This document shows, in pieces, positions 1,438-44,088 of a stretch of DNA of 64,000 nucleotides. The stretch spans positions 106,880-170,879 of the forward strand of contig DEWF01000001.1 of NCBI GenBank assembly GCA_002363545.1, written 5' to 3'. Within the stretch, counting starts at the first letter, position 1; each line of letters starts with the position of its first letter. The position numbers were made by a program, and so were the translations under genes. This DNA comes from Christensenella sp. UBA3217. GTDB taxonomy: Bacteria; Bacillota; Clostridia; Christensenellales; CAG-1252. The notes below the pieces were generated by a model. The model made no database searches, was not told the DNA's origin, and worked only from the letters and a program-made list of their open reading frames with translations.

Positions 1438-1532
1438 CGTGCCTCGCTAAAAATATCGTTTCTATACTATATTGCATTATTGCTTGAATTATAAGCGAGG
1501 AAAGGATAGAAGACTCGGAATTGAACCGAGGG

Positions 1533-1569
1533 AAAAGAAAAAGCACACCGTAAAAGCGGTGTGCTTTTG
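1533..1569 (-). terminator. Rho-independent terminator downstream of the 1413-aa surface protein gene
   Basis: A 10-bp perfect stem (aagcacaccg 1541-1550 / cggtgtgctt 1557-1566) with a 6-nt loop, followed on the minus strand by a T-rich run. Confidence 0.7.
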
Positions 1570-1587
1570 CATTAAAAAGTGAATGGA

Positions 1588-4500: not shown

Positions 4501-5829
4501 AAAGAAGGCTTTTCCTTGTACCAAGGTGCTGTTATCTTTGTCATCACCAAGCCAAATTTGAATATTGAAGAAACGATTGCTGAATTGGTTTCCGATCACG
4601 TAAATGGTGTAATAGCGCCATTCGTTTCCGTTGTTGATCACTTTGGAAGAGAAAGTCTTGGTTGCATAACCGTTGGAGCCGGCATCAAGTACGATGCGCG
4701 CGCCGAGGTTTGCGTAATCCGCAACGCTGATGTGATCGTAAGAATCCACATTGACTTTTGCATAGAAGCCGATCTTATAAAGGGTGCACAGGTCAAAACG
4801 CACTTGCGATTTGGAAGCATAGTACACAGCGGCAGGAGCAAAAGTTGCAGTGCTACTTTGGTTGGATTCGATCATGAGCACGTGATCGTCCTCGCTATCC
4901 ACAACGGGAAGACCGGGGTTCTCGCCATAGGTTTCCTCATCCCAATCCACGGCAGTGGTGGAAACAACGCCGTGCTTTAAGGTCGTGGAATTGGTTTTGG
5001 AAGTAGTCCAAGTCCAAGAGTCGGGGGTGTGAACACCGCTCTTATCGGAAGAATTGTAAGTATAATAGTTGAACTCACCTTCGGGATTGAGCAGGGACAT
5101 CACGCGAACGGTTTCCTCTGCGGGCGCCGCTTTTGCCGTGTTGTAATCAGCCGCGGTGATCTTCTCGGCAACAACGTCGTCAAAGAATGCATAACCGGAT
5201 ACCTTTTGATCGGCATATCCGAGCGCAAGAAGCACGGTCACGGAGTTGCTGTCCGCCGAGGAGGCTTCCACGTAGAAGGTATATGTGGTAAATTCATCGG
5301 TGTTGTTGATGTCGGTGATTTGGGCAAAGCCGTTATCCGCATACAGGCGGATGGTAGCGCCACCGCCGTTGGTATTAACGACCTTGACCTTAACGGTAAG
5401 TTTGTAATAACCGTAAGCTGCCGTTTCAAAGGTGGCGTAATAGCCGTTTGCGTTGAGCTCCTTGTTGTAGATCATAAGGACTTTTTCATCCTTTGCTTCT
5501 CCAAAAGGATTAGCTGCATTGCCCCAAGCGGAACTCTTTTTCGCATAGTCCGCGCCGGTGCTCACGATACCCGAAACGGTATTTTCGGAATTGTACGTGC
5601 TCGGCGTGTACTGGCTCCAAGAGGAAACGGAGTAGGGCTGCGTATCTCCGGACGTGGAAGAAAAGTCGCCGTTCGATACGAGCGAAGTGAAGGCTTCTTT
5701 TTCTTCTTCCGTCGCATTATCGGATTTGTTATCCGAACTGCTGCAGGCAAAAGCCGTTAGCGTAAGCGCGAAGACGAGCATAAGCGTGAAAAGTGTGATG
5801 AGATAGGTCTTCAAAGTAGATTTTTTCAT
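1588..5829 (-). CDS. Large cell-surface protein with about five CBM-like (jelly-roll) modules, an N-terminal lipobox and a C-terminal TM anchor
   Basis: 1413-aa ORF with an SD (GGAG) upstream of ATG 5829. The lipoprotein signal is MKKSTLKTYLITLFTLMLVFALTLTAFAC/SSSDN. Modules open with NGDFS / ENGDFSD / NGNFN motifs and close with FFDDVVAEKI, FFDKLTITPV, FLIANISMEQI, LLFDSFTYKEL and LFVDNLSLAKI, which is the grammar of CBM4/9/22-type modules. An acidic linker precedes the TM segment LIWAYITSIVIAAVLIAVIILWLF (nt 1714-1785) and a basic tail. Confidence 0.85.
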   Translation of the reverse strand: MKKSTLKTYLITLFTLMLVFALTLTAFACSSSDNKSDNATEEEKEAFTSLVSNGDFSSTSGDTQPYSVSSWSQYTPSTYNSENTVSGIVSTGADYAKKSSAWGNAANPFGEAKDEKVLMIYNKELNANGYYATFETAAYGYYKLTVKVKVVNTNGGGATIRLYADNGFAQITDINNTDEFTTYTFYVEASSADSNSVTVLLALGYADQKVSGYAFFDDVVAEKITAADYNTAKAAPAEETVRVMSLLNPEGEFNYYTYNSSDKSGVHTPDSWTWTTSKTNSTTLKHGVVSTTAVDWDEETYGENPGLPVVDSEDDHVLMIESNQSSTATFAPAAVYYASKSQVRFDLCTLYKIGFYAKVNVDSYDHISVADYANLGARIVLDAGSNGYATKTFSSKVINNGNEWRYYTIYVIGNQFSNRFFNIQIWLGDDKDNSTLVQGKAFFDKLTITPVKTFDASVSKSTVAADSILTGDIYYFDLINLLSEKDDPSEDPNLFENGDFSDLDAGLPVGYEFDTVGGSRAEIGRDVKIAVLNKEILDQEWTDDMKTQYGLSENPKYPYGFSNVLLVNNVIPAAYSVKTVEYLEIKQSLCYKLTVWMKTVGLDDGKNVTLEILSESGSSVQSFSVNTASDTNEYANGYSEYIFYFRGALPVLEENTNKVYLKVSNGSGSAYDPSSYQKGAFLIANISMEQIPYSEYSKNAGKNTKQQNYASNSTKVTNGNFNTFTPDSTEIDQETGLVALSDKDGNTHLTGAVSNWTNNVNSKYGTLQTEGTSVAFTLAKDATATQSVDLGGKNITKIVITGPSDYNKTFYTSSQWSSLLSVNNLTGKIGWKEGDTFNALEDGNYDFVVVSGQEDYNKLIAGIININNSQEYFDQFGLDRTEIYDTWNATVSEETQIKDVSFGAPNLLMITTRDGATVTLKNTTLGGTENDMTTTYALRSPSTSLEGSSYYLLKCYAKAMPGAEGEIYLTTTSTDAKVAMHKVSGTNNGWIEYNFAVETGLATVNAYFELYYGAKGDATTEFSGTLLFDSFTYKELTKEEYEAVIALEDTATSKFTTITFDNASAKEGTATPSAFSKTNSSTDKNTIVSGIISKDEFKYVTDDKDNLGLYETVTKKDEDGNDTDETEDVIIEGSALSASDIFTNAGMLDNATVGNYLLMINNRKATYQTYYLSDLSLESNSYYKFSVYVRTSHIEKDKYARVYVTISDEPTSFKVNTQYNEDGEAIENEWVKLSFYFKNEKDSSVSCKLSFELGESGTNLLQGYLFVDNLSLAKITEEEYTAGTANYKVAEKDDQGNDVLDEHGEVVLTEESKAFALTNSVIVLEADEEENTDEEETTTNSGSRTDASLIWAYITSIVIAAVLIAVIILWLFKKYYRPGKRTKVKKAGYDRSTLKGKDEEETSTGSARDEYKD

Positions 5830-6056
5830 TTAATCATCTCCGATTAAAATTTTGTTCTTAAATATTTTAATATATAAGTAAAAAATAATCAATTGTTTTT
5901 TTATTAAGAATCAAAAATAAAATATGCCAATCTGCCGTGCCGTTTGACACTCTTGACACTTGTTTCCTGCTTGATTTGCCTTAATAGTCCCTAGTTCTCC
6001 CTAGATGGCAACATAAACAAGGAATGATAGGGGAATAAATCGGGAATAGTTATACT

Positions 6057-6431: not shown

Positions 6432-6814
6432 AAACCTTATATTTGATTTTAGCGGGGGCAATCGGCGGCTTGATCGGGTCTATGGGGCTCGGAGGCGGTA
6501 CGCTGCTAATGCCCATATTGACTTTTTGTTTGAAGGTTTCGCCCAAGACGGCCTCTTGGATCAACTTGGTTTGTTTTTTACCCACGGCAGCAGTGGCTCT
6601 CGTAATACACGCTAATAATAAAATGTTGGAGAAAGGGGCGGTTATCTATCTTTTGGCGTTTTCCTTTCTCGGGCTCGCTTTGGCGCTTCCGCTGTTGGGG
6701 CGCTTGCCGGAAGTCGTGCTGAAAAAGAGCTTCGGATGGTTTTTGGTTTTGCTCGGATCCATATCGCTTATTGCTCTTTTTATCGGATATTTCAAAGAAA
6801 ACAAGCAAAAGTAA
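6428..6814 (+). CDS. TSUP (TauE/SafE) family transporter, half-size subunit 2
   Basis: 128 aa with about 4 TM segments and the motif GLGGGTLLMPIL, paralogous to the upstream half. The two genes are translationally coupled. Confidence 0.7.
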   Translation: MKTLYLILAGAIGGLIGSMGLGGGTLLMPILTFCLKVSPKTASWINLVCFLPTAAVALVIHANNKMLEKGAVIYLLAFSFLGLALALPLLGRLPEVVLKKSFGWFLVLLGSISLIALFIGYFKENKQK

Positions 6815-6928
6815 AATTATATTCTACAAATAGATTATTACACAAATTCAAACGACGATTTTTTGTTTGAAAAAGAGAGATTTTTCGTAATATTTATGGA
6901 AAACAATAAATATTTTTATATTTAAGTC

Positions 6929-6958
6929 TTTACACTACGCGTGCGGGTGTGATAAAAT
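6929..6958 (+). promoter_or_regulatory. Putative sigma-A promoter of the rnf operon
   Basis: TTTACA (6929-6934), a 17/18-nt spacer, then TGtgATAAAAT (-10 with a TG extension), 16 nt upstream of the rnfC ATG. Confidence 0.35.
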
Positions 6959-6973
6959 TAGGCTGGAATTTAA

Positions 6974-8281
6974 ATGGAGAAAATTGCTTTGAAGTTAACC
7001 TTTAAGCGTGGGGTACACCCCGCGGGCAACAAGAATATTGCAAAAGATATCCCGCTCAGCGAGTTTCCTACGCCGAGTGTGGTTTCTATTCCCTTGTCCC
7101 AACATATCGGCGCTCCGGCTGCTCCCGCGGTACAGGTGGGGGATCACGTTTCTGTCGGCACTTTGATTGGACGCTCCTCGGGTTTTGTTTCTGCAAACGT
7201 TTATTCTTCTGTCAGCGGCACAGTAAAGGAATTTATCACCAAGCGCACGGCGATCGGTACCAAAGCGAATCACGTGGTTATTGAGAACGATGGGCTTTAC
7301 CAAGAATCTTTCCTTACCCCTCTTACCGATCTTACGGCAGAATCCGTAAAGGCTCGTGTGGCGGAAGCGGGTATCGTTGGTATGGGCGGAGCCACTTTTC
7401 CCACTCACGTTAAACTTTCCCCTCGCACTCCTGTGGACGTTTTGATCATTAACGCCGCCGAGTGTGAACCCTATATTACTTGCGATTATCGCCTTTGTTT
7501 GGAAAAGACAAAAGAGATCTTTGAAGGCATTAAGGCAATGATGGTAGCTCTTGGCGTAAAAGAGGCGTATATCGGCGTGGAAGATAATAAGCCGGAAGCC
7601 ATTCGTGCGCTTTCCGTTTTTGCCACGCAGGATATTCGCGTCGTGCCCCTCATTACAAAATATCCGCAAGGGGCGGAAAAGCAGTTGATCTATTCCATCA
7701 CGCAAAGAGTGGTACCGGAAGGTGCGCTCCCTGCGGACGTTGGTGCCGTTGTTGATAACGTGCATACCGCTTATGCCATTTACGAAGCGGTGTTTCTCGG
7801 AAAGCCTTCCTTTATGCGTGCTATGACCGTGTCCGGGAAGGGGTGCGCCAAGCCCGGTAATTTTTGGGTCAGAAACGGCGTCACCTATCAGGACGTGGCT
7901 TCTTATTGTGAATTATTGCCTGAAACCGAAAAGGTGATCAGCGGCGGTCCGATGATGGGATTTGCCCAATCGGATCTTTTGCCTTCCACGGGTAAAGGTA
8001 CTTCTTCCCTTCTTTTCTTAACGAAAGAGGAGGTTGCGGAAGGGGATAAACCCATTTCCGCATGTATCAACTGTGCTTCATGCGCTTCACATTGTCCCAT
8101 GCGTTTGATGCCCATGTTTATTGAAAGAGCCGTAGATGCGGAAGACGCTGCCGCGGCAAAAAAACTTCATGCCATGAGTTGCTTGGAATGCGGATGTTGC
8201 GCTTACGTGTGTCCTGCGCGCAGACCTTTGGTCACGAGTATGCGCCGTGCAAAAAAAATGATCAAGGAAAAGGGGGTGTGA
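6974..8281 (+). CDS. rnfC: Rnf electron-transport complex subunit C
   Basis: 435 aa with an N-terminal RGVHP motif, two ferredoxin-type clusters (CINCASCASHCP and CLECGCCAYVCP), and first position in a CDGEAB gene order. Confidence 0.9.
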   Translation: MEKIALKLTFKRGVHPAGNKNIAKDIPLSEFPTPSVVSIPLSQHIGAPAAPAVQVGDHVSVGTLIGRSSGFVSANVYSSVSGTVKEFITKRTAIGTKANHVVIENDGLYQESFLTPLTDLTAESVKARVAEAGIVGMGGATFPTHVKLSPRTPVDVLIINAAECEPYITCDYRLCLEKTKEIFEGIKAMMVALGVKEAYIGVEDNKPEAIRALSVFATQDIRVVPLITKYPQGAEKQLIYSITQRVVPEGALPADVGAVVDNVHTAYAIYEAVFLGKPSFMRAMTVSGKGCAKPGNFWVRNGVTYQDVASYCELLPETEKVISGGPMMGFAQSDLLPSTGKGTSSLLFLTKEEVAEGDKPISACINCASCASHCPMRLMPMFIERAVDAEDAAAAKKLHAMSCLECGCCAYVCPARRPLVTSMRRAKKMIKEKGV

Positions 8282-29947: not shown

Positions 29948-29963
29948 CTGCGTTGGGGTGTCG

Positions 29964-30028
29964 CCAAGCGGTAAGGCACGAGACTTTGACTCTCGCACTC
30001 GTAGGTTCAAATCCTGCCACCCCAGCCA
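29964..30028 (+). tRNA. tRNA-Gln (anticodon UUG)
   Basis: The acceptor stem is TGGGGTG/CACCCCA, the anticodon stem CGAGA/TCTCG with loop CTTTGAC, and the T-arm GTAGG-TTCAAAT-CCTGC. CCA is encoded. Confidence 0.95.
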
Positions 30029-30093
30029 AATGATAACTCGCCTTTCGGGGCGAGTTTTTATTTACATAACGGCAGAATTTGAACGAGAGCGTT
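30027..30093 (+). repeat. 67-bp direct repeat, copy 1 (starts in the CCA end of tRNA-Gln and contains the tRNA-cluster terminator)
   Basis: The sequence caaatgataactcgcctttcggggcgagtttttatttacataacggcagaatttgaacgagagcgtt is identical, base for base, to 31334-31400. Confidence 0.95.
30035..30059 (+). terminator. Rho-independent terminator of the tRNA cluster (inside repeat copy 1)
   Basis: An 8-bp stem (aactcgcc / ggcgagtt) followed by a T-run. Confidence 0.75.
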
Positions 30094-30125
30094 AAAAAAA
30101 ACAGCAGTTGACTTCTGCTGTTTTT
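30094..30125. terminator. Bidirectional terminator-like hairpin at the left edge of the islet
   Basis: An A8 run, the stem aacagcag / ctgctgtt with loop ttgactt, then a T5 run. Confidence 0.6.
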
Positions 30126-30192
30126 AGCGGCTGACCGAAGCAAAGCGAAAAGCAGAAACTTGATAAAAAGTATGCTTTGCGCTTTGCAAGAG

Positions 30193-30213
30193 CAAATCCT
30201 GCCACCCCAGCCA
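30193..30213 (+). repeat. 21-nt duplicate of the tRNA-Gln 3' end (T-loop to CCA); att-like remnant
   Basis: caaatcctgccaccccagcca at 30193-30213 is identical to 30008-30028 of the intact tRNA-Gln. It is followed by a different downstream sequence. Confidence 0.9.
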
Positions 30214-30214
30214 G

Positions 30215-30254
30215 AAAAGACTCATCTTTTGGTGGACAAAAGATGAGTCTTTTA
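30215..30254 (+). terminator. Strong hairpin/terminator following the tRNA-Gln fragment
   Basis: A perfect 16-bp stem (aaaagactcatctttt / aaaagatgagtctttt) with loop ggtggac. Confidence 0.7.
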
Positions 30255-30257
30255 AAC

Positions 30258-30432
30258 TAAATCCGTCCTTGCGGACGGGTAAAATCGCCTTGTCGGGCGG
30301 TGAAATCACTTTGTGGTGAAATCCGCCTGCGGCGGGTTAAGGACGGATTTAATTTCACCGAAGTCGCAGCCTTCGATTTCACCTGAGGGCATAAGCCCGA
30401 GGATTTCACCGCGCCAACGGCGCGATTTCACT
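30258..30432. repeat. Inverted array of eight 9-mers (GGTGAAATC x4 on the left arm, GATTTCACC x4 on the right arm) separated by short, distinct GC-rich spacers, most of which are palindromic
   Basis: Left-arm copies: TAAATC 30258-30263, GGTAAAATC 30278-30286, GGTGAAATC 30299-30307 and 30315-30323. Right-arm copies: GGATTTAATTTCACC 30345-30359, GATTTCACC 30375-30383 and 30402-30410, GATTTCAC 30424-30431. Spacers: cgtccttgcggacg, gccttgtcgggc, actttgt, cgcctgcggcg, gaagtcgcagccttc, gagggcataagccc and gcgccaacggcgc; all but actttgt are small palindromes. Confidence 0.9.
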
Positions 30433-30433
30433 A

Positions 30434-30462
30434 TTGAATCATTTACATTTTTCGAGTATAAT
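30434..30462 (+). promoter_or_regulatory. Putative sigma-A promoter of the GNAT gene, abutting the 9-mer array
   Basis: TTGAAT (30434-30439), a 17-nt spacer, then the consensus TATAAT (30457-30462). Confidence 0.55.
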
Positions 30463-30509: not shown

Positions 30510-31256
30510 ATGGAATACATAAAGGTTACAAAAGATAACATTGAAAGCGAACATATCTGCTGTGCCATTTCAAACAATAAGGATGTTCAGGTTGCATCAA
30601 AAAAAGCATGGCTTACCGCACGTTTTGATGACGGGCTTGTATTTCTTAAAAGCGTGGAGCGCGGGAAGTGTTTTATTGAATATATACCTGCTGAAAATGC
30701 GTGGAATCCGATAGATGCAGACGGTTATATGTATATTGACTGTCTATGGGTATCCGGCTCATTTAAGGGGCATGGATATTCAAACGAACTTTTAGACGAG
30801 TGTATAAAAGACAGTAAAGCCAAGGGGAAAACCGGTCTTTGCATTTTAACTTCCGAAAAGAAAAAACCGTTTCTTGCAGATCCGAAATATCTGAAACACA
30901 AAGGTTTTACCGTTTGCGATGAGGCTGATAACGGAATTCAGCTTGCATATTTGCCGTTTGCCGCTTCTGCCGCAAAACCCCGTTTCAAAGAGTGCGCCAA
31001 GTATCCGCGTATCGAAGAAAAAGGATATGTGCTTTACTATACAAGCCAGTGTCCCTTTAACGCAAAATATGTTCCGATCGTGGAACAAACTGCCAAAGAG
31101 CATAATATTCCGTTCAAAGCGATACGCATCGAAAATAAAGAACAGGCGCAGAACGCACCTACACCGATCACAACGTATGCTCTCTTTTATGACGGAGTAT
31201 ATCTGACAAACGAGCAGATGAATGATACTAAATTTTTGAAGCTGGTTGCTCGATAA
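30510..31256 (+). CDS. GNAT-family N-acetyltransferase with a YoaP-like C-terminal domain
   Basis: 248 aa with a GNAT motif-A-like segment LWVSGSFKGHGYSNELLDECI. The C-terminal half (YVLYYTSQCPFNAKYVPIVEQTAKEHNIPFKAIRI...) resembles the YoaP-like domain. By eye the gene is more AT-rich than its neighbours. Confidence 0.7.
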   Translation: MEYIKVTKDNIESEHICCAISNNKDVQVASKKAWLTARFDDGLVFLKSVERGKCFIEYIPAENAWNPIDADGYMYIDCLWVSGSFKGHGYSNELLDECIKDSKAKGKTGLCILTSEKKKPFLADPKYLKHKGFTVCDEADNGIQLAYLPFAASAAKPRFKECAKYPRIEEKGYVLYYTSQCPFNAKYVPIVEQTAKEHNIPFKAIRIENKEQAQNAPTPITTYALFYDGVYLTNEQMNDTKFLKLVAR

Positions 31257-31333
31257 ATTCCGGTGGAGGCAAAAGTGTACATCATTTAGGCGTTTTTACC
31301 TTGATTATGTATCATTTACGCGCTCTTTTACAA

Positions 31334-31400
31334 ATGATAACTCGCCTTTCGGGGCGAGTTTTTATTTACATAACGGCAGAATTTGAACGAGAGCGTTGTG
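31334..31400 (+). repeat. 67-bp direct repeat, copy 2 (its hairpin at 31342-31366 probably terminates the GNAT gene)
   Basis: Identical to 30027-30093. The flanks differ on both sides. Confidence 0.95.
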
Positions 31401-31476
31401 AAAACCCGCGATGATCGCATTTTGATGCGAGATTATAAATACCGCAGAACCGTTTTAAATCTCATCAATTTTTTGT

Positions 31477-31505
31477 TTTACAATCACGCTTGAATATGCT
31501 ATGAT
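31477..31505 (+). promoter_or_regulatory. Putative sigma-A promoter of the ZIP transporter gene
   Basis: TTTACA (31477-31482), a 17-nt spacer, then TATGAT (31500-31505). Confidence 0.45.
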
Positions 31506-31541
31506 TTTTTCGAATAAGATGGTAGGAGATTGGGTTAAACT

Positions 31542-32318
31542 ATGCTTTACGTGTTTATCGGTGTTTTAATACCCTTTTTAGGAACCTGTTTAGGGTCTTC
31601 CTGCGTCTTTTTCTTGCGTGGAGATATGAACGATAAGCTTAAAAAGGGCTTAACGGCCTTTGCGGCGGGTATCATGGTTTCCGCATCTTTTTTCAGTTTG
31701 ATTGTTCCCGCTTTGGAAGAATCCAAAGATATGGGCAAATTTGCTTTTGCGCCCGCTGCCATCGGTTTTTTGATCGGTATGCTGTTTTTGCTTGCGCTTG
31801 ATATTGTTATCCCGCATATCCATAATGATAAAAGCGAGGAGGGCGTAAAAAGCGGTTTGAAAAACACAACCAAAATGTTTCTTGCCGTGGCGCTTCATAA
31901 CCTTCCCGAAGGAATGACGGTTGGTGTGATCTTTGCCGGCTGGCTTTACGGTAATCAAACCATATCTTTAATGGGAGCCGTGGTCATGTCCATCGGTATT
32001 GCTTTGCAAAACTTCCCCGAAGGTGCGATCGTGTCCATGCCGCTTAGGGCGGAAGGTATGCCCAAAGGCAAAACTTTTCTTTACGGTGTTTTATCCGGTG
32101 TGGTGGAACCCATCGGCGCGGTGCTGACCATTTTTGCCGCAAGTGTATTTTTGCCCATTCTTCCGTATCTTTTGGCTTTTGCCGCAGGCGCCATGTTTTA
32201 TGTGGTGGTGGAAGAATTGATCCCCGAAACGGCAAGAGGAGAACACACCAACGTTTCCACCGTGTGCTTTGCCATCGGTTTTGTGGTTATGATGGCGTTG
32301 GATATCGGTTTGGCGTAA
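31542..32318 (+). CDS. zupT: ZIP-family divalent metal (zinc) transporter, ZupT-like
   Basis: 258-aa polytopic protein with the paired motifs ALHNLPEGMTVG and ALQNFPEGAIVS. Confidence 0.85.
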   Translation: MLYVFIGVLIPFLGTCLGSSCVFFLRGDMNDKLKKGLTAFAAGIMVSASFFSLIVPALEESKDMGKFAFAPAAIGFLIGMLFLLALDIVIPHIHNDKSEEGVKSGLKNTTKMFLAVALHNLPEGMTVGVIFAGWLYGNQTISLMGAVVMSIGIALQNFPEGAIVSMPLRAEGMPKGKTFLYGVLSGVVEPIGAVLTIFAASVFLPILPYLLAFAAGAMFYVVVEELIPETARGEHTNVSTVCFAIGFVVMMALDIGLA

Positions 32319-36090: not shown

Positions 36091-39000
36091 ATGAAAAAAG
36101 CAAAACTGTTTCTTTCGGTTTTTTTGATCGTTGTTTTGGCAGTTGTCTGTCTATATGCCTGTTCGGAAGGTGGTACGGAGAGTGTTGCTCCCGTTTCTAT
36201 CGTTGCGGAAGAAAACGGGATCTCTTTTTCGCATGAAACCTACGATACTTTTTATTACGTTTTGGATGATGGGGAAGAGAAAGAGGTTGATGGCTCAGCG
36301 TCTTTGCGCTATTCCACCACTGCAGGCGCTCATACCATTAAAGTTTACGTAAAGGATAGTTCCGGTAAGGAAGCAGGAGTTGCGGAATATGCATATACCA
36401 CGGTTAAAATTGCATTGACGTTAAACCCTCTTTCGGGTAAGACGGTTTCTTGGACGGCTATTGCCAAAGAGGTTTCCGTGAAAGAATCGGGGGATTATGT
36501 GATCACTACCGAGAATTCTTATACGGCATCTTTGGATGGTGTGAAAGTGTTCGTTCGTGCCGTGGGTGGGTTTGACGCGGAAAATGCGGTTTATTACGCC
36601 GGCTCATCCATTACGCAGTCTGTCACCATTGCACCCAGCGTTTTGCCAACACTTGCCGCACCCACTTTGAAGTTTAACGATAACACCATTACCTGGACCA
36701 CAAATACAAAAGCAAGCGGCTATGCGGTATCTTATGATGCCGGTGAATATACCCTTCTTACCAAAAACAGTGATAAAAAATATGATCCGCTATTGCTCTC
36801 CGATGTAATTGGTCCACACAGTATTGCGTTAAAAGCAGTAGGGGATCACACCAATTATGATGACAGTCCTGCTGCCGTTTATCAATATCAAACGGTGGCT
36901 ACTACTCTTAGCGCCATCAAGACAGCTTCGGATCAAGCAACGGTCACATCGGTGGCACCCGTCTATTTTACTGCCGATAATGACGCCTACATTCCTCTTG
37001 AAGGTTCGTTGTATACGGCACCCGAAAGTTGCACAATCTCCTTTGTCGCTTACGGTTTGGATAAGCAAAATGATATCAATTACGTGGTTGGTGACGTGGC
37101 AACCATCACTTTTGTGACCACGGCAATACGCGATAACGTAATTGAGGATGGGGCGGACGGCTTTGCCGAGCGCTGGTCCGCGGATAAATTCGGTTCTACC
37201 GCATGGGAAAGCACTTCGGCGCACCTTTCTTTGGGAAAGAGATATGATCGTTCCGATGCACTTGTTATGAATGCCTGGAATAACAACGTGGCATATCGTT
37301 TTTCCACATTGCTTAACTTAACGCAGGGATATGATTCCCTCTCTTTCTATTACAAAGGGGATGGGATCTCCCGTTTGACTTTAACGCTTGCGGATGACGA
37401 CACGGGTTATGCCATTCGCCGAGATCTTGGCGTGTTGCCGGCCTATTGGGTGAAGGTAACTTTGCGATTGGATGATCCCGATTGGACGCTCAATAACGGC
37501 TTTTCTCTTGCCGATCTTTGGGAAATGAGAACATCGGAAGAGGCGCAATCTTACGGGGTTCCCGATATTATAGCAACTGCTTTTGAGCTTTACGAGATTG
37601 TTCCTTTTCTTGATCGTTTGAGCTTTACCGTCACCGGAAACGATGAAATCGGTGACGACTGTAAGTTGTGCTTTGACGAATTGACTTTCTCTTACGATCC
37701 AGAGGCAAAAGAAGACGTGATGCAACCCATCACGATGGGTTCCTCTTACGTTGCATACGAAACTTTGCCCAACGAATCGAGAAACGAGTGGCTTCTCTTT
37801 TTGGAAGAAGAAAATACCTTCCGTTTATATTCTACCGCTTTGGAGAAAAACTGCATTTTGAACGGCTCATATTCTACGGACCTTGCTCGTGCGACTCTTC
37901 GTTTACAAGATGAGAACGGTTTGCAGATGGATCTTTCCTTTGAAGATAACGGCATGTCTGTGCGCGTGTTTGCGGTGACCGGTGAATATGCAGATCATTT
38001 GGATGCGCTTCTTTTCAAACAAACGGCGGATCTTACATTGGATTTTGAAGACGGGGAAGTGGGAGAAAGCTATCTTAACGAAGATTGGATCTCCTACTAT
38101 TACGTGGAAAACCAAGGGTGGAAAGTAAACGAATCTTCGCAGATCAATTGCCGTGAGAAAAACGCTTCTACCGTTATTAACTTTGCCACGGGTCAATATC
38201 TTACCAATCAATTCGTTTACCATGAGGAAGGTATGCCGTTTGGTCTTGCCAATTCGTTCTCGGTAGCGATCGGTAACTATTACACCGGGGCGCAACCCAT
38301 AGAGGTCAAATGGGTGGCCGTGGATGTTAACGGTGATCAGCACTATCTTTTAGGCAGTGAGAGCGCCTTTTACGTTTATCCCGTCACCGATAATCTTGAA
38401 ACCATCCAATATGAAACAAAAGATCCCATTTCTCCCGTGACATTCCTGTTTATTACGAGGTACCACGGTGATAACGAAGTGAGTTATTTGTATTTGGACG
38501 ATCTTACCGTGAGATATAAGGCAGATTCTTCCGTCTTCTCCGGTTATTCCGAACCGGAGATCGAAAAAGGGCGTTTTGCGCTCACCTTTACCCATGAAGA
38601 CGCCAACGCCATCATGGAGTATTCCGTAAATGACGGAGAATGGACGGAAGGCACCATTTATTCTATTCCTACCGTGGCAGGTAATTACGTGGTGCGTGTT
38701 CGCGGAAGAGTGGGGGCGGATGAAACGCTTACCAAAACAGCGTCTTATTCATTCAGGGTAGAGGACGTGTTCCTTTCTCCCATATCGGTAGCCATTGAAG
38801 GCGGGGTGCATACCGCCACCTGGACCACCAACGGTAAGATCTCCCGTAAGGTGGACTTAAAAACAGAGTCTGGCATTGTTCCCGGCACCTTTGAGGAAAC
38901 CGAAACCAATTCCTATTCTACCGAGCAAAACTCGGTTTTGACCGTGCGAGTGGAAGGCTACTACGACAGCGAGAACAACGTTTATTACGTGGGATCGCAG

Positions 39001-42000
39001 GAGCTTACCAAAAAGATCCTTGCCGGTGTGACAAAATCGGAAGATCCCGTGATCGTTCCCACGCAAGAGGGTATCACTTGGTCTGAGATAGAGGACGCTT
39101 CTTACGCCGTTTCCGTAAACGGAAGCGATGAAGTGATCCGCGCGGATAGGCTCTTCCCTTATGCTAAGGTGGAAGGGGAATACGTTTTGCGCGTCAGAAG
39201 CGTGATCTTGGATGATAATGGGGAAGTGATCGCGTACAGCAATTATGCGGAATTCCGCTATACGGTAAAACCCGTCACCCTCACCCTTAGCAAGGATAAG
39301 GCAACCGTGAGCTGGACGGCGCAAGCATATAGAGTATCTTTAACGGTTAATACCGTCACCTATGACGATTGGGCGGAAAACTACTATACCGCAACCGAAC
39401 TTGGCGGTCATTCGTTGTCTGTTGCGGCAAAAGCAGGCTATAAGGATGGCGTGTACTATTACTGCGAAAAGGACGTGGTTAGGGAAACCAGTGTAAAAGT
39501 TCGCAATCTTCCCGCACCTACCCTCTTTTTGAACAGCTCGGAAAACGGTCTGTATTGGGCGTTTGCTAATCAGGATAATTCGGATGATACCGTTGCCACT
39601 GTGGAAGATATGAACAGCGCGTTCCCCTTCCTTACGTATCAGATCTCGGTGAACGGGGGAGAGTGGTATGCTGCAAGCGAGTATCTTTTCCCGTCTGTGG
39701 CAGGGGATTACAGCGTGCGCGTAAAGACCATCGGAAACGAGGGGAATTATAAAGACAGCAAACCTTCCGATCCCTTTACCTTTACGGTTCGCGAGCTATC
39801 TCTTTCCGATATCAGCGTGGAAGAAAGCGAGATAGAAAGTGTAGCAACTTATACCTACACCGCATTGTATCTTTACAGAAAGGTGGGAGAGAAAGGAGCG
39901 GAAAGCCGTATTGAAGATACCACCTTTGTCACCAACGTGACCGCCACGCTTTTCTTGCGTGCAACGGGCGGTTTTGATAAGGTGAATAAGATCTTTTACT
40001 TTGGAGAAGAGATCAACAAGAATAAGACGGTCATCGTGCCCAAGTACCTGGCGGCTCCCGTGCTTAATAAAACCAAGGACGGCATTACGTGGTTGGGCGT
40101 GGAAAACGCCAATGCTTATTACGTAACGATAAACGACGTTCCCGTGGGCGTGCAACCGCAAACGGCCCTCTCTTTGACCTATGCAACCACTCCCGGGGAG
40201 TACCAAGTTTCGGTAAAAGCGGTCAATACGGGTGAATTTGAACACTTGCAGTACCCGGATAGTGCCTACGCGGAGTATACCTATCGCGTGATCCAAATCG
40301 GGCTCTCGGATTATAGGATCACCGGTGCTGTGGTCAGTTGGGAATTTGACGGCATTTTGTCCTTGTATGAAGCCGGTGACGAGGTGGTTGGGCATTCCGA
40401 GTTATACGAATACGCTCCCTATGATAGATCCTATTACATTAACGAAAGCGGTGATAATATCACCTTGTGTTTGCAGATCGAACCGGGGTTTGATGCGGAA
40501 AATGATATTCTATATATCGGAAGTACCATTTGGGTTGAACTCCCCGTTACGGAATCACAACTTTTTGCGCCCGAATTGCAGGTGGTAGAGGGCGGTTTGG
40601 AGTGGCAAGAGGATAAGAAAGCCACGGCTTTTGCTTATAAAGTGTTGGAAGGGGTTTATACGGATCAGCAGATCGAAACCGAAGCGGCGGATACCGTTGC
40701 GGAAAATTGGTCCTCTTATCTTCCCTCGGTAAGGCGTTATGAATTCAGTCATACCGCAGGCAACTACGTGTTTATCATCAAAACGATGGGCGACGGTTCC
40801 GCCATTAAGGACAGTGAACCTACCTATTGGCGCTACTCGGTGCAATACGTTTCTCTCTCGGAGATCACGGTAAACAACAAGGTTGCTTCTTGGACCAAGG
40901 TGGGTATTACGGAAAGAAGGATAGAAAGAATCGTAAACGGGTATCCCGAAACCATTCCTTTTGCCTTGATAACCGATACCTCCTATCAGGCGTCCGAAAC
41001 GCTTACGCTCACCATTCGATGTAAGAGTGGTTACGATGCGGAAAACAACGTTTACTATTACGGGGAAACCGTTGAAGAAAGCAAAGAAGTGGTGGTGCCC
41101 ACTCAGTTGGGAACGCCTGATCTTACCTTTGAAGCGGTAGGTATTCGCATCGGCAGGGTGCAAAATGCCGATTCGGTGCTTATTTCGGTAAATAACGGCG
41201 AGTATTTCGTGTTTACGGAATCTATTTATTCGCTTTCCGATACGGTGGGGGAATATACCGTAAAGGTACGCGCTTACAACAGCAAGGATACGAAAAACCA
41301 ATATCCTGCCAGCGAGGATGCGATCGTCACCTACCAAGTGAGGGAAGTTTGTATTCCCGAGATCACGGAAGAGGATGGTCGTGCGCTGTTTGAAAGCGCG
41401 CAGGGCGTCTTTTATGCAAAAGAAGAAGGCTGGACGGATTACGCAGAAACGGCTTTGACCGAAAAGGCTTATTCTCCCGAAAGCGGTAGTACCACCGTTT
41501 ATATTAAGGCTACCGCGGGCGTGGATACCGCCAATCGATTAAAATTCGTTGGCACGGATAAGGAAAACAGCAAGTACATCGTGGTACCTATCAAACTCAA
41601 TAGCCCGAGATTGGTGGAAGGTATTTCGGCATTGACCATACAAAAGGTGGATAATGCGGATAGTTATTTGGTATCCGTAGACGGTGGCGAGTACGTTTTG
41701 CAAACCCAGTTGTACGTTTCTTACCTTACTTCCGTTACGACAGGGGATGAAAAGCACACCATCTCCGTGAAAGCACATTCTACAGGCGATTCAAAGCAGT
41801 ATCCGGATAGTGATCCCGTGATGGTGGAATATAAAACGGTGGTTTGTTATTTAAGCAATTTGAAGGTGGAAAGCGGCACCACAAAGTTTACTTGGGAAGT
41901 GAACGCGCAATCGGTGAGGATCAGCGTGAATGGTGGAACGGCATATGCTTATACCGCCACTTCCTATACCGCCACAGCAGTAGGAAAGACCACCTTAAAA

Positions 42001-44088
42001 GTCACGGCATATACCGGATATTCTTCCGCTAACCATACCTATTATTATGCGGCGGATGCTTCTTTGTCTTTGAGCGCAAACGTGACCATCTCCAAGCTAT
42101 CCAAGCCTTCGCTCTCGGTTAGCAATAACCGCATCACCTGGTCTTCGGTGAGCCAAGCAACGGGCTATTCGGTAAAAACCAATTCGGCAAGTCCTGCTTC
42201 GCAAAGCAATACGTACACCAATCTTGCTTCGCAAGAGGGAAGTTATACCGTGGCTGTTAAAGCACTCGGAAACGGCTCCACACTTCTTGACAGCGATGAG
42301 GCAACCTATACCTATCAAGTAAAGATCGTTACCCTCTCCAATATTTCTGTGGTTGGTCCCAAGGCGTCATGGAGTGCGGTTGCGTATAAAACTTCTTACA
42401 GCGTGGACGGTTCGAGCAGTTATACTGTCACGACGGATACTTCCTATTCCTTTACCACAGAAGGTACTCATACCTTAAACGTGAAAGCAGAGGGCGGTTG
42501 GAATTCATCCGAGAAGATCTATTATTATACTTCTTCTCCCATTGTAAAATCCGCTACCGTAAAGGTTGCTACTCTTGCAAAACCCACTCTTACCGCGAAC
42601 AGTAAGGGGATCTCTTGGAATTCCGTAACCAACGCAACGGGGTATTCCGTTAAGATCGATAACGGCAGTTATACCACGCAGTCTGATAGAAGTGTATCCT
42701 TCTCCACTACCGTTGGCACTCATACCGTTTACGTTAAGGCGCTGGGCGCTACCGGATCGGCTTATGCGGATAGTGCAGCCGCAACCTTTACTTACGCCAC
42801 AAAACAAACGGCATTCTCCTTTATCAGTTCTTCCGGCACCATGGCAACTTGGAGCTATGCCGGCGTGTCTGCGCAGTATTCCACAGATGGTGGTAATAAT
42901 TACGTGAATACTCCCTACACGGGGTATACTGCCACAGCTAACGGAACGGTGAAATTCCGCGCAGTTGGCGGGTGGGATGCCGCCGCAAACGTCTATTATA
43001 ACGGTACCACTTCGGCGCAAAGCAAAACCTTCACTTTGCCCGGGCTTTGCATCAATAACAACTTTGAAAAGGGCATTGGTACTTGGTCAAAAGAGTATTA
43101 CAATACCAATTGGGCAACCGCTTCTACGGCTTCGGTTTCTGCCGCAACGGATGCTTACGGCGCTGGTCAGGCAGTAAAATTTCATTCCTTCCTTAACGGA
43201 ATGTCTTATCGCTTCGGCATTAGCTTTGGCGATCTTCCTTCCAGTTATAAATCGCTGAGTTTTGATATTAAACTGAACGCGTATTTGAATACGGGAACCA
43301 CCTTCCGTTTCCAGGATTCGGCAAGCGGTACTTACGTGGATTATAAAATAGATCACTTGTCCCTCACTGCAGGTGTTTGGTATCACGTGACGGTGGGATT
43401 TGAGGATGAAAACCTGATCATCAATTCCGGTAATAAAGAGTATACTGCACCCAAAGCAAAAAGCCTTTTGGGCGAAAAGTCTTTCTATGAAAAGATCAAA
43501 GCGCTTGATAAGATGTATGTGACCGTTAGAGGTAATCATGGGGAAGGGGCGGACGCATATACCTTCTTGGATAACTTGCAATTCTCCACCGCAACTTGTT
43601 CTTCTGCCAATGCGGTAAAGATCACCACGAAAGAAGTGGATTTCAATAATGGTTCAGCAAGCGGGTGGAAGCAGTATACGTATCAATCGAATACCTATGT
43701 GAGTGCAGGAAACGTTTCTATCGCAACCGCATCGGATAAAGACAGAGTGCTCAACCTTTGGACGGGCGGCAATACCTATAAGTTTACGTATAACGAGGGC
43801 GGGTCGAGTCTCGGCACGGTAAACCACCTCTCCATTGACCTTGGCGGTGATAGCGGTGATACGAGTTTGAAATATCGTATTGAGATCGTCACCAAGAGCG
43901 GCAGCACCATCTACGCCGCGGGTGGGGAAGACTTTATGGCATCGCTTTCTTCACCGGGCGGTATCTCTTCTCTCCAAACGGTGAACTTTAACTTTACGGC
44001 AACCGAGATCAAGAGTATAATTATTTACGCTACTTCTGCAAGCGGACACCTGTTTGTGGATAACTTGATCTTAACCAAACTATCATGA
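36091..44088 (+). CDS. Giant (2665-aa) surface lipoprotein: tandem Ig/Fn3-like two-part repeats plus four CBM-like modules
   Basis: One uninterrupted ORF. The signal/lipobox is MKKAKLFLSVFLIVVLAVVCLYAC/SEGG. CBM-like modules lie at about residues 346-535, 646-810, 2317-2500 and 2505-2665 (openings DFEDGEVGES, INNNFEKGIGTW and VDFNNGSASGW; closings CFDELTFSY, LYLDDLTVRY, TFLDNLQFS and LFVDNLILT). There is no LPXTG motif, C-terminal TM segment or SLH motif. Confidence 0.9.
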   Translation: MKKAKLFLSVFLIVVLAVVCLYACSEGGTESVAPVSIVAEENGISFSHETYDTFYYVLDDGEEKEVDGSASLRYSTTAGAHTIKVYVKDSSGKEAGVAEYAYTTVKIALTLNPLSGKTVSWTAIAKEVSVKESGDYVITTENSYTASLDGVKVFVRAVGGFDAENAVYYAGSSITQSVTIAPSVLPTLAAPTLKFNDNTITWTTNTKASGYAVSYDAGEYTLLTKNSDKKYDPLLLSDVIGPHSIALKAVGDHTNYDDSPAAVYQYQTVATTLSAIKTASDQATVTSVAPVYFTADNDAYIPLEGSLYTAPESCTISFVAYGLDKQNDINYVVGDVATITFVTTAIRDNVIEDGADGFAERWSADKFGSTAWESTSAHLSLGKRYDRSDALVMNAWNNNVAYRFSTLLNLTQGYDSLSFYYKGDGISRLTLTLADDDTGYAIRRDLGVLPAYWVKVTLRLDDPDWTLNNGFSLADLWEMRTSEEAQSYGVPDIIATAFELYEIVPFLDRLSFTVTGNDEIGDDCKLCFDELTFSYDPEAKEDVMQPITMGSSYVAYETLPNESRNEWLLFLEEENTFRLYSTALEKNCILNGSYSTDLARATLRLQDENGLQMDLSFEDNGMSVRVFAVTGEYADHLDALLFKQTADLTLDFEDGEVGESYLNEDWISYYYVENQGWKVNESSQINCREKNASTVINFATGQYLTNQFVYHEEGMPFGLANSFSVAIGNYYTGAQPIEVKWVAVDVNGDQHYLLGSESAFYVYPVTDNLETIQYETKDPISPVTFLFITRYHGDNEVSYLYLDDLTVRYKADSSVFSGYSEPEIEKGRFALTFTHEDANAIMEYSVNDGEWTEGTIYSIPTVAGNYVVRVRGRVGADETLTKTASYSFRVEDVFLSPISVAIEGGVHTATWTTNGKISRKVDLKTESGIVPGTFEETETNSYSTEQNSVLTVRVEGYYDSENNVYYVGSQELTKKILAGVTKSEDPVIVPTQEGITWSEIEDASYAVSVNGSDEVIRADRLFPYAKVEGEYVLRVRSVILDDNGEVIAYSNYAEFRYTVKPVTLTLSKDKATVSWTAQAYRVSLTVNTVTYDDWAENYYTATELGGHSLSVAAKAGYKDGVYYYCEKDVVRETSVKVRNLPAPTLFLNSSENGLYWAFANQDNSDDTVATVEDMNSAFPFLTYQISVNGGEWYAASEYLFPSVAGDYSVRVKTIGNEGNYKDSKPSDPFTFTVRELSLSDISVEESEIESVATYTYTALYLYRKVGEKGAESRIEDTTFVTNVTATLFLRATGGFDKVNKIFYFGEEINKNKTVIVPKYLAAPVLNKTKDGITWLGVENANAYYVTINDVPVGVQPQTALSLTYATTPGEYQVSVKAVNTGEFEHLQYPDSAYAEYTYRVIQIGLSDYRITGAVVSWEFDGILSLYEAGDEVVGHSELYEYAPYDRSYYINESGDNITLCLQIEPGFDAENDILYIGSTIWVELPVTESQLFAPELQVVEGGLEWQEDKKATAFAYKVLEGVYTDQQIETEAADTVAENWSSYLPSVRRYEFSHTAGNYVFIIKTMGDGSAIKDSEPTYWRYSVQYVSLSEITVNNKVASWTKVGITERRIERIVNGYPETIPFALITDTSYQASETLTLTIRCKSGYDAENNVYYYGETVEESKEVVVPTQLGTPDLTFEAVGIRIGRVQNADSVLISVNNGEYFVFTESIYSLSDTVGEYTVKVRAYNSKDTKNQYPASEDAIVTYQVREVCIPEITEEDGRALFESAQGVFYAKEEGWTDYAETALTEKAYSPESGSTTVYIKATAGVDTANRLKFVGTDKENSKYIVVPIKLNSPRLVEGISALTIQKVDNADSYLVSVDGGEYVLQTQLYVSYLTSVTTGDEKHTISVKAHSTGDSKQYPDSDPVMVEYKTVVCYLSNLKVESGTTKFTWEVNAQSVRISVNGGTAYAYTATSYTATAVGKTTLKVTAYTGYSSANHTYYYAADASLSLSANVTISKLSKPSLSVSNNRITWSSVSQATGYSVKTNSASPASQSNTYTNLASQEGSYTVAVKALGNGSTLLDSDEATYTYQVKIVTLSNISVVGPKASWSAVAYKTSYSVDGSSSYTVTTDTSYSFTTEGTHTLNVKAEGGWNSSEKIYYYTSSPIVKSATVKVATLAKPTLTANSKGISWNSVTNATGYSVKIDNGSYTTQSDRSVSFSTTVGTHTVYVKALGATGSAYADSAAATFTYATKQTAFSFISSSGTMATWSYAGVSAQYSTDGGNNYVNTPYTGYTATANGTVKFRAVGGWDAAANVYYNGTTSAQSKTFTLPGLCINNNFEKGIGTWSKEYYNTNWATASTASVSAATDAYGAGQAVKFHSFLNGMSYRFGISFGDLPSSYKSLSFDIKLNAYLNTGTTFRFQDSASGTYVDYKIDHLSLTAGVWYHVTVGFEDENLIINSGNKEYTAPKAKSLLGEKSFYEKIKALDKMYVTVRGNHGEGADAYTFLDNLQFSTATCSSANAVKITTKEVDFNNGSASGWKQYTYQSNTYVSAGNVSIATASDKDRVLNLWTGGNTYKFTYNEGGSSLGTVNHLSIDLGGDSGDTSLKYRIEIVTKSGSTIYAAGGEDFMASLSSPGGISSLQTVNFNFTATEIKSIIIYATSASGHLFVDNLILTKLS
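38533..43038 (+). repeat. Coding tandem array: nine copies of a ~165-aa two-part (A+B) module inside the giant gene
   Basis: B-part examples: PAPTLFLNSSENGLYWAF, AAPVLNKTKDGITWLGVENANAYYVTIND, SKPSLSVSNNRITWSSVSQATGYSVKTN and AKPTLTANSKGISWNSVTNATGYSVKIDNG. A-part examples: RVEGYYDSENNVYYVGS, RATGGFDKVNKIFYFGE, IEPGFDAENDILYIGS, CKSGYDAENNVYYYGE, KAEGGWNSSEKIYYYTS and RAVGGWDAAANVYYNGT. Confidence 0.8.

Follow-up and report, generated by a model that had tools for sequence, protein, structure and literature searches.

Gut-1 (RF01706) appears to be one half of a larger dyad-symmetric element beside stable-RNA operons of gut Clostridia

The Gut-1 motif (Rfam RF01706) was first described from 43 human-gut metagenome sequences, where it was judged to be an RNA that is not cis-regulatory, and its sole textual description states that it is confined to gut environmental sequences (Weinberg et al. 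2010, PMC2864571). Rfam classes it as 'Gene; sRNA' (small RNA) and assigns no function to it, and no further paper mentioning Gut-1 was found in the literature that we searched. Here we analyze an inverted array of short cores and hairpins in a 64-kb stretch of a Christensenella sp. UBA3217 contig (DEWF01000001.1), in the following called the window. The array is one copy of the catalogued Gut-1 motif plus an inverted partner and should not be labeled as an operator of the adjacent GNAT gene.

Clusters of extragenic palindromic repeats (REP/BIME, REPIN) are found in Enterobacteria and Pseudomonas. Similar to the element described here, they are located in extragenic sites beside terminators at the 3' ends of operons, consist of small hairpins in alternating or inverted order with short linkers, are repeated within a genome as diverged copies, and a function as DNA or involving both strands has been suggested for them. 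However, the palindrome of REP is conserved, whereas in the Gut-1 element the hairpins vary and the linkers are constant (125 distinct stem sequences, differing within and between copies). Moreover, REP/BIME are dispersed in high copy number, while the Gut-1 element occurs once in 64 kb and is tied to the ends of tRNA/rRNA operons. A RAYT-type gene (IS200-like Y1 transposase) was not seen near the element, and no transposase-like neighbor recurred in the loci compared. A preliminary description of the array, made from the letters of the window, had named membership in a common REP-type family as the finding that would make it routine; of the traits of such a family we found the extragenic site beside terminators, but neither the high copy number nor the conserved palindrome.

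A second group of comparable systems comprises the mini-hairpin DNA motifs C-GNA-G and C-GNNA-G, i.e. d(GCGNAGC) and d(GCGNNAGC), which are extraordinarily stable as DNA, need a C-G closing pair and are known from the complementary-strand origins of phage G4, from RSF1010 ssiA and from the hairpin promoters of phage N4 (PMC13037366; PMC3201870). The Gut-1 element resembles the sites of phage G4, RSF1010 (ssiA/ssiB) and phage N4 in the loop, the closing pair and the single-stranded recognition tail (PMC13037366). At those sites a lone hairpin in the origin of a phage or plasmid is served by a known primase or polymerase, while the Gut-1 element consists of chromosomal arrays with three to four hairpins per arm. 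In RSF1010, ssiA and ssiB reportedly form an inverted pair with one site on each strand, which resembles the arrangement of the two arms of the Gut-1 element. Finally, sponge sRNAs of the CsrB/RsmZ type also carry many short motif copies between or on hairpins, but they are transcribed from promoters of their own and accept G·U pairs, whereas the Gut-1 element shows no conserved promoter and almost no G·U.

A Gut-1 copy and its inverted partner

The proximal (left) arm of the array (Table 1) matches RF01706 over its full length (model positions 1-77) with 60.1 bits compared to a gathering threshold of 50, and the distal (right) arm gives a weaker, inverted match of 36.8 bits, which is below threshold (local E=5e-6). 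The consensus of the family is UGAAAU-hairpin-GUGAAAU-hairpin-GUGAAAU-hairpin-GUGAAAU. Three covarying hairpins flanked by (G)UGAAAU, as described for Gut-1, were found in the cmscan alignment and in the compensatory stem changes of L132 and L074 (labels of this type denote the individual loci or contigs compared in this analysis). The statement of the preliminary description that the array matches no recognised class is therefore superseded, although its view that neither a CRISPR nor a set of iterons is present agrees with our analysis. The likeness to published Gut-1 lies in the full-length match of the left arm and the shared gut-bacterial origin. The published motif is a single 77-nt 'sRNA', whereas here it forms half of a dyad-symmetric composite. 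The terminator hairpin, the central hairpin, the covarying centre-to-end complementarity and the fixed position behind tRNAs are all absent from published Gut-1, and the strand signals (loops, G·U vs A·C) favor the strand opposite to the Rfam model.

All core copies of the eight-core inverted array were found in the sequence (Table 1), and six GC-rich palindromic spacers were confirmed. A further spacer, actttgt, had been regarded as not palindromic, but it forms a 3-bp mini-hairpin when the flanking core bases are included, and the orthologue L132 has ccc-ttc-ggg. Four exact 9-mers were seen in the window compared to 0.58 expected, all of them inside 112 bp, and none of 100 shuffles of the window contained four or more. 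The spacings of the cores (21, 16, 24, 27 and 22 bp; range 16-27 bp) are not helically phased. Upstream of the array we observed three terminator-type hairpins on the + strand, one of which was scored as a terminator by the scan. The complementarity between aaatccgtcc (30259-68) and ggacggattt (30341-50) that had been pointed out before is present as well, and an inverted-repeat search extends it to 17 nt at 94%. The centre segment involved (30341-30351) can be read in two ways, as one strand of an alternative long-range helix or as a duplicate bracketing the proximal arm. The two arms had also been supposed to pair copy for copy into a rod. Such inter-arm pairing is indeed predicted when the complete element is folded, be it as RNA or as DNA, with z-scores between -7 and -10, but the covariation backs local hairpins and one centre-to-end helix instead. 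Because the cores are invariant, folding cannot separate the models, and the cores carry no covariation information on core-to-core pairing.

Several other classes of repeats were considered and rejected. CRISPR arrays are defined by direct repeats of ~23-50 nt and unique, non-palindromic spacers of similar length; here the cores measure 7-9 nt, the spacers are palindromes of 7-18 nt, and the sole match to a CRISPR model (CRISPR-DR28) reaches 20.4 bits compared to a threshold of 35. In ToxI-like RNAs of type III toxin-antitoxin systems, the tandem repeats are nearly identical and lead into a terminator and the gene of a toxin; here the units differ in sequence and the downstream gene is not conserved. 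Iterons or a multi-site operator do not agree with spacings that are neither regular nor helically phased or with the varying neighboring genes, and an integron attC site was ruled out on anatomy.

Table 1. Coordinates of the array, its flanking features and related features at other loci
Locus	Feature	Position	Strand	Remarks
Window	tRNA-Gln(ttg)	29954..30028	+	last of the Gly-Arg-His-Gln cluster; ARAGORN and Rfam tRNA matches
Window	21-nt duplicate of tRNA-Gln 3' end, caaatcctgccaccccagcca	30194..30214	+	direct repeat of 30008-30028; directly before terminator and array
Window	terminator-type hairpin	30215..30253		perfect 17-bp stem (17 nt, 100% complementary); A-run and T-run flanks; bidirectional-terminator type
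Window	proximal arm	30254..30327	+	cores CTAAAT, GTAAAAT, GTGAAAT, GTGAAAT separated by P1, P2, P3; Rfam Gut-1 match
Window	truncated core TAAATC	30259-30264	+	sequence reading
Window	hairpin P1, ccgtcc-ttgc-ggacgg	30263-78		palindromic spacer
Window	core variant GGTAAAATC	30278-30286	+	sequence reading
Window	hairpin P2, cgcc-ttgtcg-ggcg	30286-99		palindromic spacer
Window	core 9-mer GGTGAAATC, exact	30299-30307; 30315-30323	+	sequence reading
Window	hairpin P3, cac-ttt-gtg	30307-15		3 bp; mini-hairpin when flanking core bases are included
Window	central GC hairpin, ccgcc-tgc-ggcgg	30323-35		minus strand reads as C-GCA-G triloop
Window	centre segment ggacggattta	30341..30351	+	complements taaatccgtcc (30258-68), 5' half of P1
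Window	distal arm, inverted Gut-1 copy	30347..30433	-	four ATTTCAC cores on + strand: 30352, 30376, 30403, 30425
Window	reverse-complement core with AAT insertion	30346-30360		sequence reading
Window	distal hairpin gaag-tcgcagc-cttc	30360-74		palindromic spacer
Window	reverse-complement core GATTTCACC, exact	30375-30383; 30402-30410		sequence reading
Window	distal hairpin gggc-ataa-gccc	30387-98		palindromic spacer
Window	distal hairpin cgcgcc-aac-ggcgcg	30410-24		palindromic spacer
Window	reverse-complement core variant GATTTCAC	30424-30431		sequence reading
Window	outward sigma-70-type promoter TTGAAT, 17-nt spacer, TATAAT	30434..30462	+	promoter scan 10/12
Window	GNAT/YoaP gene	30510-31256	+	Pfam YoaP and Acetyltransf_1 domains
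L012	TIGR02436 gene	4814-5170		
L034	TIGR02436 gene	6899-7129		
L052	TIGR02436 gene	1046-1390		
L074	TIGR02436 gene	1484-1831		
L076	TIGR02436 gene	1271-1615		
L091	TIGR02436 gene	3874-4218		
L110	sister core GCTAAAT	6657-6830		own centre-to-end complementarity
L024	sister core AATGATGT	986-1150		
L011	sister core AATGATGT	3324-3372; 3603-3651		
L002	sister core TGATAT	4907-4962		also in L216
L131	sister core TATGTCA	4862-5000		site syntenic with window array
L007 (Akkermansia)	sister cores GGTTATATC and GAGATT	1979-2055; 5958-6009; 7004-7053		

The composite element behind tRNA and rRNA operons

A pattern scan of species-representative genomes yielded 120 loci. The true matches came from metagenome-assembled genomes (MAGs) of gut and rumen Clostridia, namely Oscillospiraceae, Ruminococcaceae, Acutalibacteraceae, Christensenellaceae and 'Eubacteriales'. 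We observed the convergent pair of arms (>>>><<<<) in at least 41 loci, about 27 of them from the genome scan and 14 from IMG/VR contigs (prophage/host borders). This search of related genomes, which the preliminary description had proposed, reveals that the array recurs beyond the window. The order of the parts is the 3' end of a tRNA/rRNA operon, a bidirectional terminator hairpin, the proximal arm with the Rfam match, a central GC hairpin and the inverted distal arm, with a total length of ~180-240 bp and three to four units of hairpin plus heptamer ATTTCAC per arm. In the direction from distal arm to tRNA, the consensus begins with (a)agTGAAAT-hpD1-gTGAAAT-hpD2-gTGAAAT-hpD3-gTGAAAT, continues with gaaat plus a segment X and the central GC hairpin, and enters the proximal arm as ATTTCAc-hpP3-ATTTCAc-hpP2-ATTTCAc-hpP1 (X-loop-X')-ATTTCGttg; an A-run, the big hairpin, a T-run and the tRNA 3' end (antisense in this view) form its outer end. 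The terminator-proximal arm scored above the RF01706 threshold in all 19 composites tested, always on the strand of the upstream tRNA, while the distal arm did so in two composites only (L094 and L119). A hairpin in the central position is kept in all composites, and a hairpin equivalent to the one at 30215-30253 abuts the proximal arm in nearly all of them. At the proximal terminus the consensus is ATTTCGTTGAAAAAAGC, and the distal terminus is conserved as ATTTCACT only (terminus logo).

The segment X after the last distal core complements X' plus the terminal core over 10-13 nt in ~30 of the 41 composites. At least six covarying variants of X were found, for example GAAATAAATCC, GAAATTCGCC, AAATTCGTTCC, GAAATTTGCCC and GAAATCCACCC, the variant of the window being TAAATCCGTCC. 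This centre-to-end complementarity is the same as the one noted before in the window. Earlier descriptions appear to lack the architecture of the composite, its context at tRNA terminators, the strand signatures of DNA type, the exchange of arms and the sister cores. A subfamily with a wide centre was seen in L098 (1-240, 2570-2690) and L072 (1-400, 3740-3884), where the arms are split by a hairpin-rich centre of 100-150 bp and a large AT-rich hairpin is located at both ends; in L098 two such elements bracket a 2.3-kb operon of three genes.

The position of the composites relative to tRNA genes is constant in orientation, although many tRNA identities are involved. In 12 of the 41 composites a full tRNA (ARAGORN) is located 26-61 nt beyond the proximal end, 6 further composites show a clear tRNA 3' end at the edge of the locus, and about 8, including the window and L132, have a partial tRNA 3' end alone, so that partial or complete tRNA 3' ends precede ~26 of the 41. 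A partial 3' end is what an element leaves behind when it integrates into a tRNA gene and displaces the original end. One locus (L092) has the order 23S-5S-tRNA-tRNA-Gut-1. The window contains one composite in 64 kb, even at E<=0.01, and it lies beside the sole tRNA cluster. Directly before its terminator a duplicate of the tRNA-Gln 3' end was found (Table 1), which is the displaced original end of this gene, and L132 carries the same partial tRNA end before its element. The ~165 bp between the intact tRNA-Gln and the duplicate (30029-30193) contain terminator-like hairpins (30035-56 and 30100-22) and an inverted fragment similar to a tRNA T-arm (cggcagaatttgaac), and homologous inserts are present in L130 and L132. 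This segment looks like a much reduced remnant of an element that once inserted into tRNA-Gln.

Some MAGs contain several copies per contig (L041, L082, L034, L072, L098 and L193), and comparison of copies revealed that arms were replaced as units. Among the viral-contig loci, L215 has a proximal arm wholly unlike that of L167/L188 (L188 ~838-1030), while distal arm, terminator and tRNA are near-identical; the difference is bounded exactly by cores and is a strain-level module swap. The tandem copies of L193 share their proximal arms but not their distal arms, and near-identical arms with the outer hairpin are found in unrelated flanks in L098, L099 and L120. From these three kinds of cases it follows that the arms behave as exchangeable modules. 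Furthermore, sister arrays, which combine a constant short core of another sequence with variable GC hairpins, were observed in the same or related genomes (Table 1), and some of them share a genome with Gut-1. Scans of viral contigs for two of these cores, TATGTCA and AATGATGT, gave only chance or tandem-repeat matches and no array of the hairpin type.

Strand signatures and candidate roles

We parsed the hairpins by anchoring on the cores (Python) and dropped a covariance model of the arms, because a MAFFT alignment of 20 proximal arms misplaced the middle core in several rows. On the ATTTCAC strand, 125 distinct hairpins from 45 loci contain 733 Watson–Crick pairs, 8 G·U pairs and no A·C pair; after swapping partner halves between hairpins the Watson–Crick fraction falls to 34%. 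A larger set of 204 distinct hairpins, read on the Rfam strand, shows 8 A·C vs 1 G·U. In comparison, G·U makes up 7.3% of the tRNA stems of the same loci (69 of 944 pairs; Fisher p=9e-11 vs element stems). The loops are also strongly biased toward one strand: of 73 triloops read on the ATTTCAC strand, 47 are GNA compared to 4 of the complementary type (p=2e-10), with 44 of the 47 closed by 5'C-G3', and 26 of 40 tetraloops are GNNA (15 of them GNRA) compared to none of the complementary type. This is the loop pattern of the mini-hairpin DNAs, and we observed it family-wide; within the window it fits only the central hairpin (hpC) and P1, plus the mismatched hairpin at 30360-74. In the two arms the GNA loops occupy opposite physical strands, so that the signature is dyad-symmetric, and no single transcript carries it in both arms. 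Taken together, the stem, loop, symmetry and promoter features fit hairpins that have to form as DNA or on both strands. Correction of quasi-palindromes by template switching is a known DNA-level mechanism, and it would also yield 'compensatory' changes without G·U intermediates.

The reading that we prefer, albeit with somewhat less than even confidence, is a structural repeat of BIME/ssi type that acts at the DNA level or on both strands at the ends of stable-RNA operons. It starts from the anatomy, the location, the strand-specific signatures, the absence of a conserved promoter and the modular exchange, all of which were directly observed in the loci compared. From these we infer action at the DNA level, a protein partner and a physiological role, which might be connected as follows. 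When either strand becomes single-stranded, as lagging-strand template, in a transcription bubble or by supercoil-driven extrusion, one arm would display a row of stable C-GNA-G/C-GNNA-G mini-hairpins, and the constant single-stranded heptamer between them would be the putative recognition site of a trans-acting protein. Due to its mirror symmetry the element could work for a fork or polymerase coming from either direction. By analogy with BIME/REP clusters and single-strand initiation signals, it may serve as structural punctuation or as a protein-loading site at the ends of stable-RNA operons, which are heavily transcribed, and it is also prone to recombination, as arms are exchanged between copies. 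Three ideas of the preliminary description are still live, namely a nucleoprotein platform, a recombination scaffold beside a site of integration and an RNA transcribed from upstream. A number of points weigh against the structural-repeat reading. Strong stem covariation is also expected of a structured RNA, and the GNRA loops together with the ATTTCAC-strand count of 8 G·U to 0 A·C suit an RNA from that strand as well. The A-run and T-run of the terminator imply that some transcription enters from the distal side, and a weak inward promoter-like site is present on the minus strand of the window (30485-30458; TTGTCG, 16-nt spacer, TATTAT, 9/12). In addition, the loop and G·U statistics come from our own hairpin parser and not from a curated structural alignment, and clustering of the neighboring open reading frames (ORFs) identified no partner protein. 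The low copy number tied to tRNA loci is unlike classical REP/BIME, and the non-conserved hairpin sequences are unlike REP. Finally, the motif was judged an RNA by Rfam and in its first description (Weinberg et al. 2010, PMC2864571).

A genuine Gut-1 sRNA, or two of them, is an unlikely but serious alternative. It could be a 3' trailer read through from the tRNA operon on the Rfam strand or a ~235-nt transcript that enters from the distal side, crosses both arms and ends at the shared terminator, and by analogy with the CsrB/RsmZ sponges its 4+4 single-stranded GUGAAAU/AUUUCAC heptamers between hairpins would titrate an RNA-binding protein. The match to the Rfam covariance model above threshold, the strong covariation, the GNRA loops and an ATTTCAC strand on which G·U outnumbers A·C argue for such an RNA, as do the whole-element fold z-scores, a U-rich stretch after the central GC hairpin on the Rfam strand, the weak minus-strand promoter-like site and the terminator hairpin, whose A-run and T-run make it able to end a transcript from the distal side. 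However, a promoter is conserved on neither side: inward promoter-like sites upstream of the distal arm were found in only 6 of 40 loci, at inconsistent distances, and the scan of these 40 loci gave no conserved inward promoter. The arm on the Rfam strand starts right after the T-run of the tRNA terminator, its rare mismatches are A·C rather than G·U, and G·U is about seven times rarer than in the tRNAs of the same loci. Moreover, a single transcript cannot satisfy strand signals that are located on opposite physical strands in the two arms, and in about half of the loci the distal neighbor is transcribed away from the element. If the hairpins act on nascent RNA, the element may instead be a fail-safe bidirectional transcription insulator or terminator, which we regard as improbable. 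Each unit in AUUUCAC orientation would be a GC hairpin with a short U-containing tail, so that a polymerase arriving from either side past the main terminator would meet three to four weak terminators or pause sites and a downstream promoter would be shielded from very strong tRNA/rRNA transcription. Such an insulator agrees with the position between the terminators of stable-RNA operons, which the element follows directly, and outward promoters, with the dyad symmetry, with the stable loops and tolerated G·U on the hairpin-then-AUUUCAC strand and with the terminator-like score of P1 plus ATTTAGTTTA on the minus strand in the promoter/terminator scan. Nevertheless, U occurs just three times in AUUUCAC, and in sister arrays the core (ACAUCAUU, GAUAUAACC) does not form a U-tract. 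Many loci are already flanked on either side by strong terminators, and the heptamer is conserved exactly, which points to recognition of its sequence and not simply to a preference for U.

We consider it quite improbable that the arrays are leftover integrase or excisionase arm sites of an integrative element that targets tRNAs, or a cis-mobilisable relic. The proximity to tRNA 3' ends and to duplicated partial ends, the 14 copies in IMG/VR contigs at prophage/host borders and the variable islet of genes downstream in relatives would agree with this origin, but no integrase recurs among the neighboring genes, covarying hairpin spacers are not a trait of arm-type sites, and the element follows many different tRNAs and an rRNA operon. 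In the window, in L132 and in the L145 group it is located on the chromosomal side of the displaced tRNA end and hence predates the insertions. Distant blastn searches gave no match in annotated phages (with the window element) or plasmids (with the copy of L041). The least probable explanation is the dedicated multi-site operator or upstream platform for the GNAT/YoaP promoter that the preliminary description had put forward. The near-consensus promoter noticed there is present, and the last core ends 2 nt before its -35 element. An outward promoter whose -35 starts 0-5 nt past the last distal core recurs in 7 of 40 loci (window, L012, L024, L076, L119, L193 and L216), and 15 of 40 have one within 90 nt. 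However, the gene beyond the array is not constant. In the syntenic relatives its place is taken by other genes, whether the array is present or not, and it also varies among 40 other loci; nearly every locus has a different one, convergent in about half of the cases, which makes an operator dedicated to GNAT unlikely, and the core spacings are unphased. We also considered the -35 as a part of the element terminus and rejected this, because conservation at the distal end does not extend past ATTTCACT. The outward promoter of the window is thus a neighbor of the element and not a conserved component.

More tentatively than the structural-repeat reading itself, we propose that 'Gut-1 RNA' may be no sRNA but the tRNA-proximal arm of a new class of chromosomal dyad-symmetric DNA elements. 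These would be characterized by arrays of hyperstable GNA/GNNA mini-hairpins on opposite strands, family-specific heptamers (GTGAAAT, GCTAAAT, AATGATGT, TATGTCA and GGTTATATC of Akkermansia), a fixed orientation after tRNA/rRNA terminators and modular arms, and they would be read by a matching family of proteins that bind or process single-stranded DNA. Gut-1 has been an orphan 'sRNA' of Rfam with a one-sentence description since 2010 and now appears to be half of a larger element. This turns a vague motif into one with testable questions: whether it acts as RNA or single-stranded DNA, what binds the heptamer and why it is found at the ends of stable-RNA operons. If the DNA reading is true, abundant gut Clostridia (Oscillospirales, Christensenellales) have their own counterpart of REP/BIME or ssi, and covariation alone can misfile DNA palindromes as RNAs.

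Genes around the element

Partner genes were searched by all-against-all clustering of 398 neighboring ORFs, which contained no recurrent integrase or transposase. The recurrences were ABC transporters and AraC regulators, both likely due to chance, and a four-helix-bundle protein of 115 aa. The gene of the latter (TIGR02436; Avd / 23S-rRNA-intervening-sequence protein family) adjoins the distal arm in six loci (Table 1), starts 16-58 bp outside of it, is always directed away and mostly has an extended -10 promoter; in L091 its start codon is located ~25 nt from the last core. This association is far more frequent than expected by chance. Apart from the four-helix-bundle protein, the genes beyond the array in relatives and other loci encode a glyoxalase, a methyltransferase or a membrane protein, or a convergent gene is found there. 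The distal neighbor is transcribed away from the element in about half of the loci and toward it in about half.

Syntenic loci were retrieved via homologues of the upstream phosphoesterase and show the order ABC/FtsX-Ham1-MPE-tRNA Gly/Arg/His/Gln-(variable genes)-ZIP; the Gly-Arg-His-Gln tRNA cluster is thus also present in these relatives. The orthologue L132 (neighboring protein 72% identical) retains the element with compensatory changes in its stems (cac/gtg to ccc/ggg, cgcc/ggcg to cgccc/gggcg and ccgcc/ggcgg to ccgcac/gtgcgg). At the syntenic loci L129 and L130 the element is not present, and L131 has an array with another core, TATGTCA, at the syntenic site after a similar terminator. 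Contigs of the same species are 100% identical across the region and therefore uninformative. A comparison of the window (30510-32318) with L129-L132 showed that each relative has different genes in the interval from the tRNA cluster to the ZIP transporter gene; among them are GNAT/YoaP, DUF3795 with TfoX_N, PadR-HAAS-DUF4097, a hydrolase and a glyoxalase. The interval represents a variable islet located at a tRNA hot spot, and no integrase was seen there. Farther downstream in the window, behind the oxaloacetate decarboxylase genes, a very long ORF of 2665 aa is located at 36091-44088 (+).

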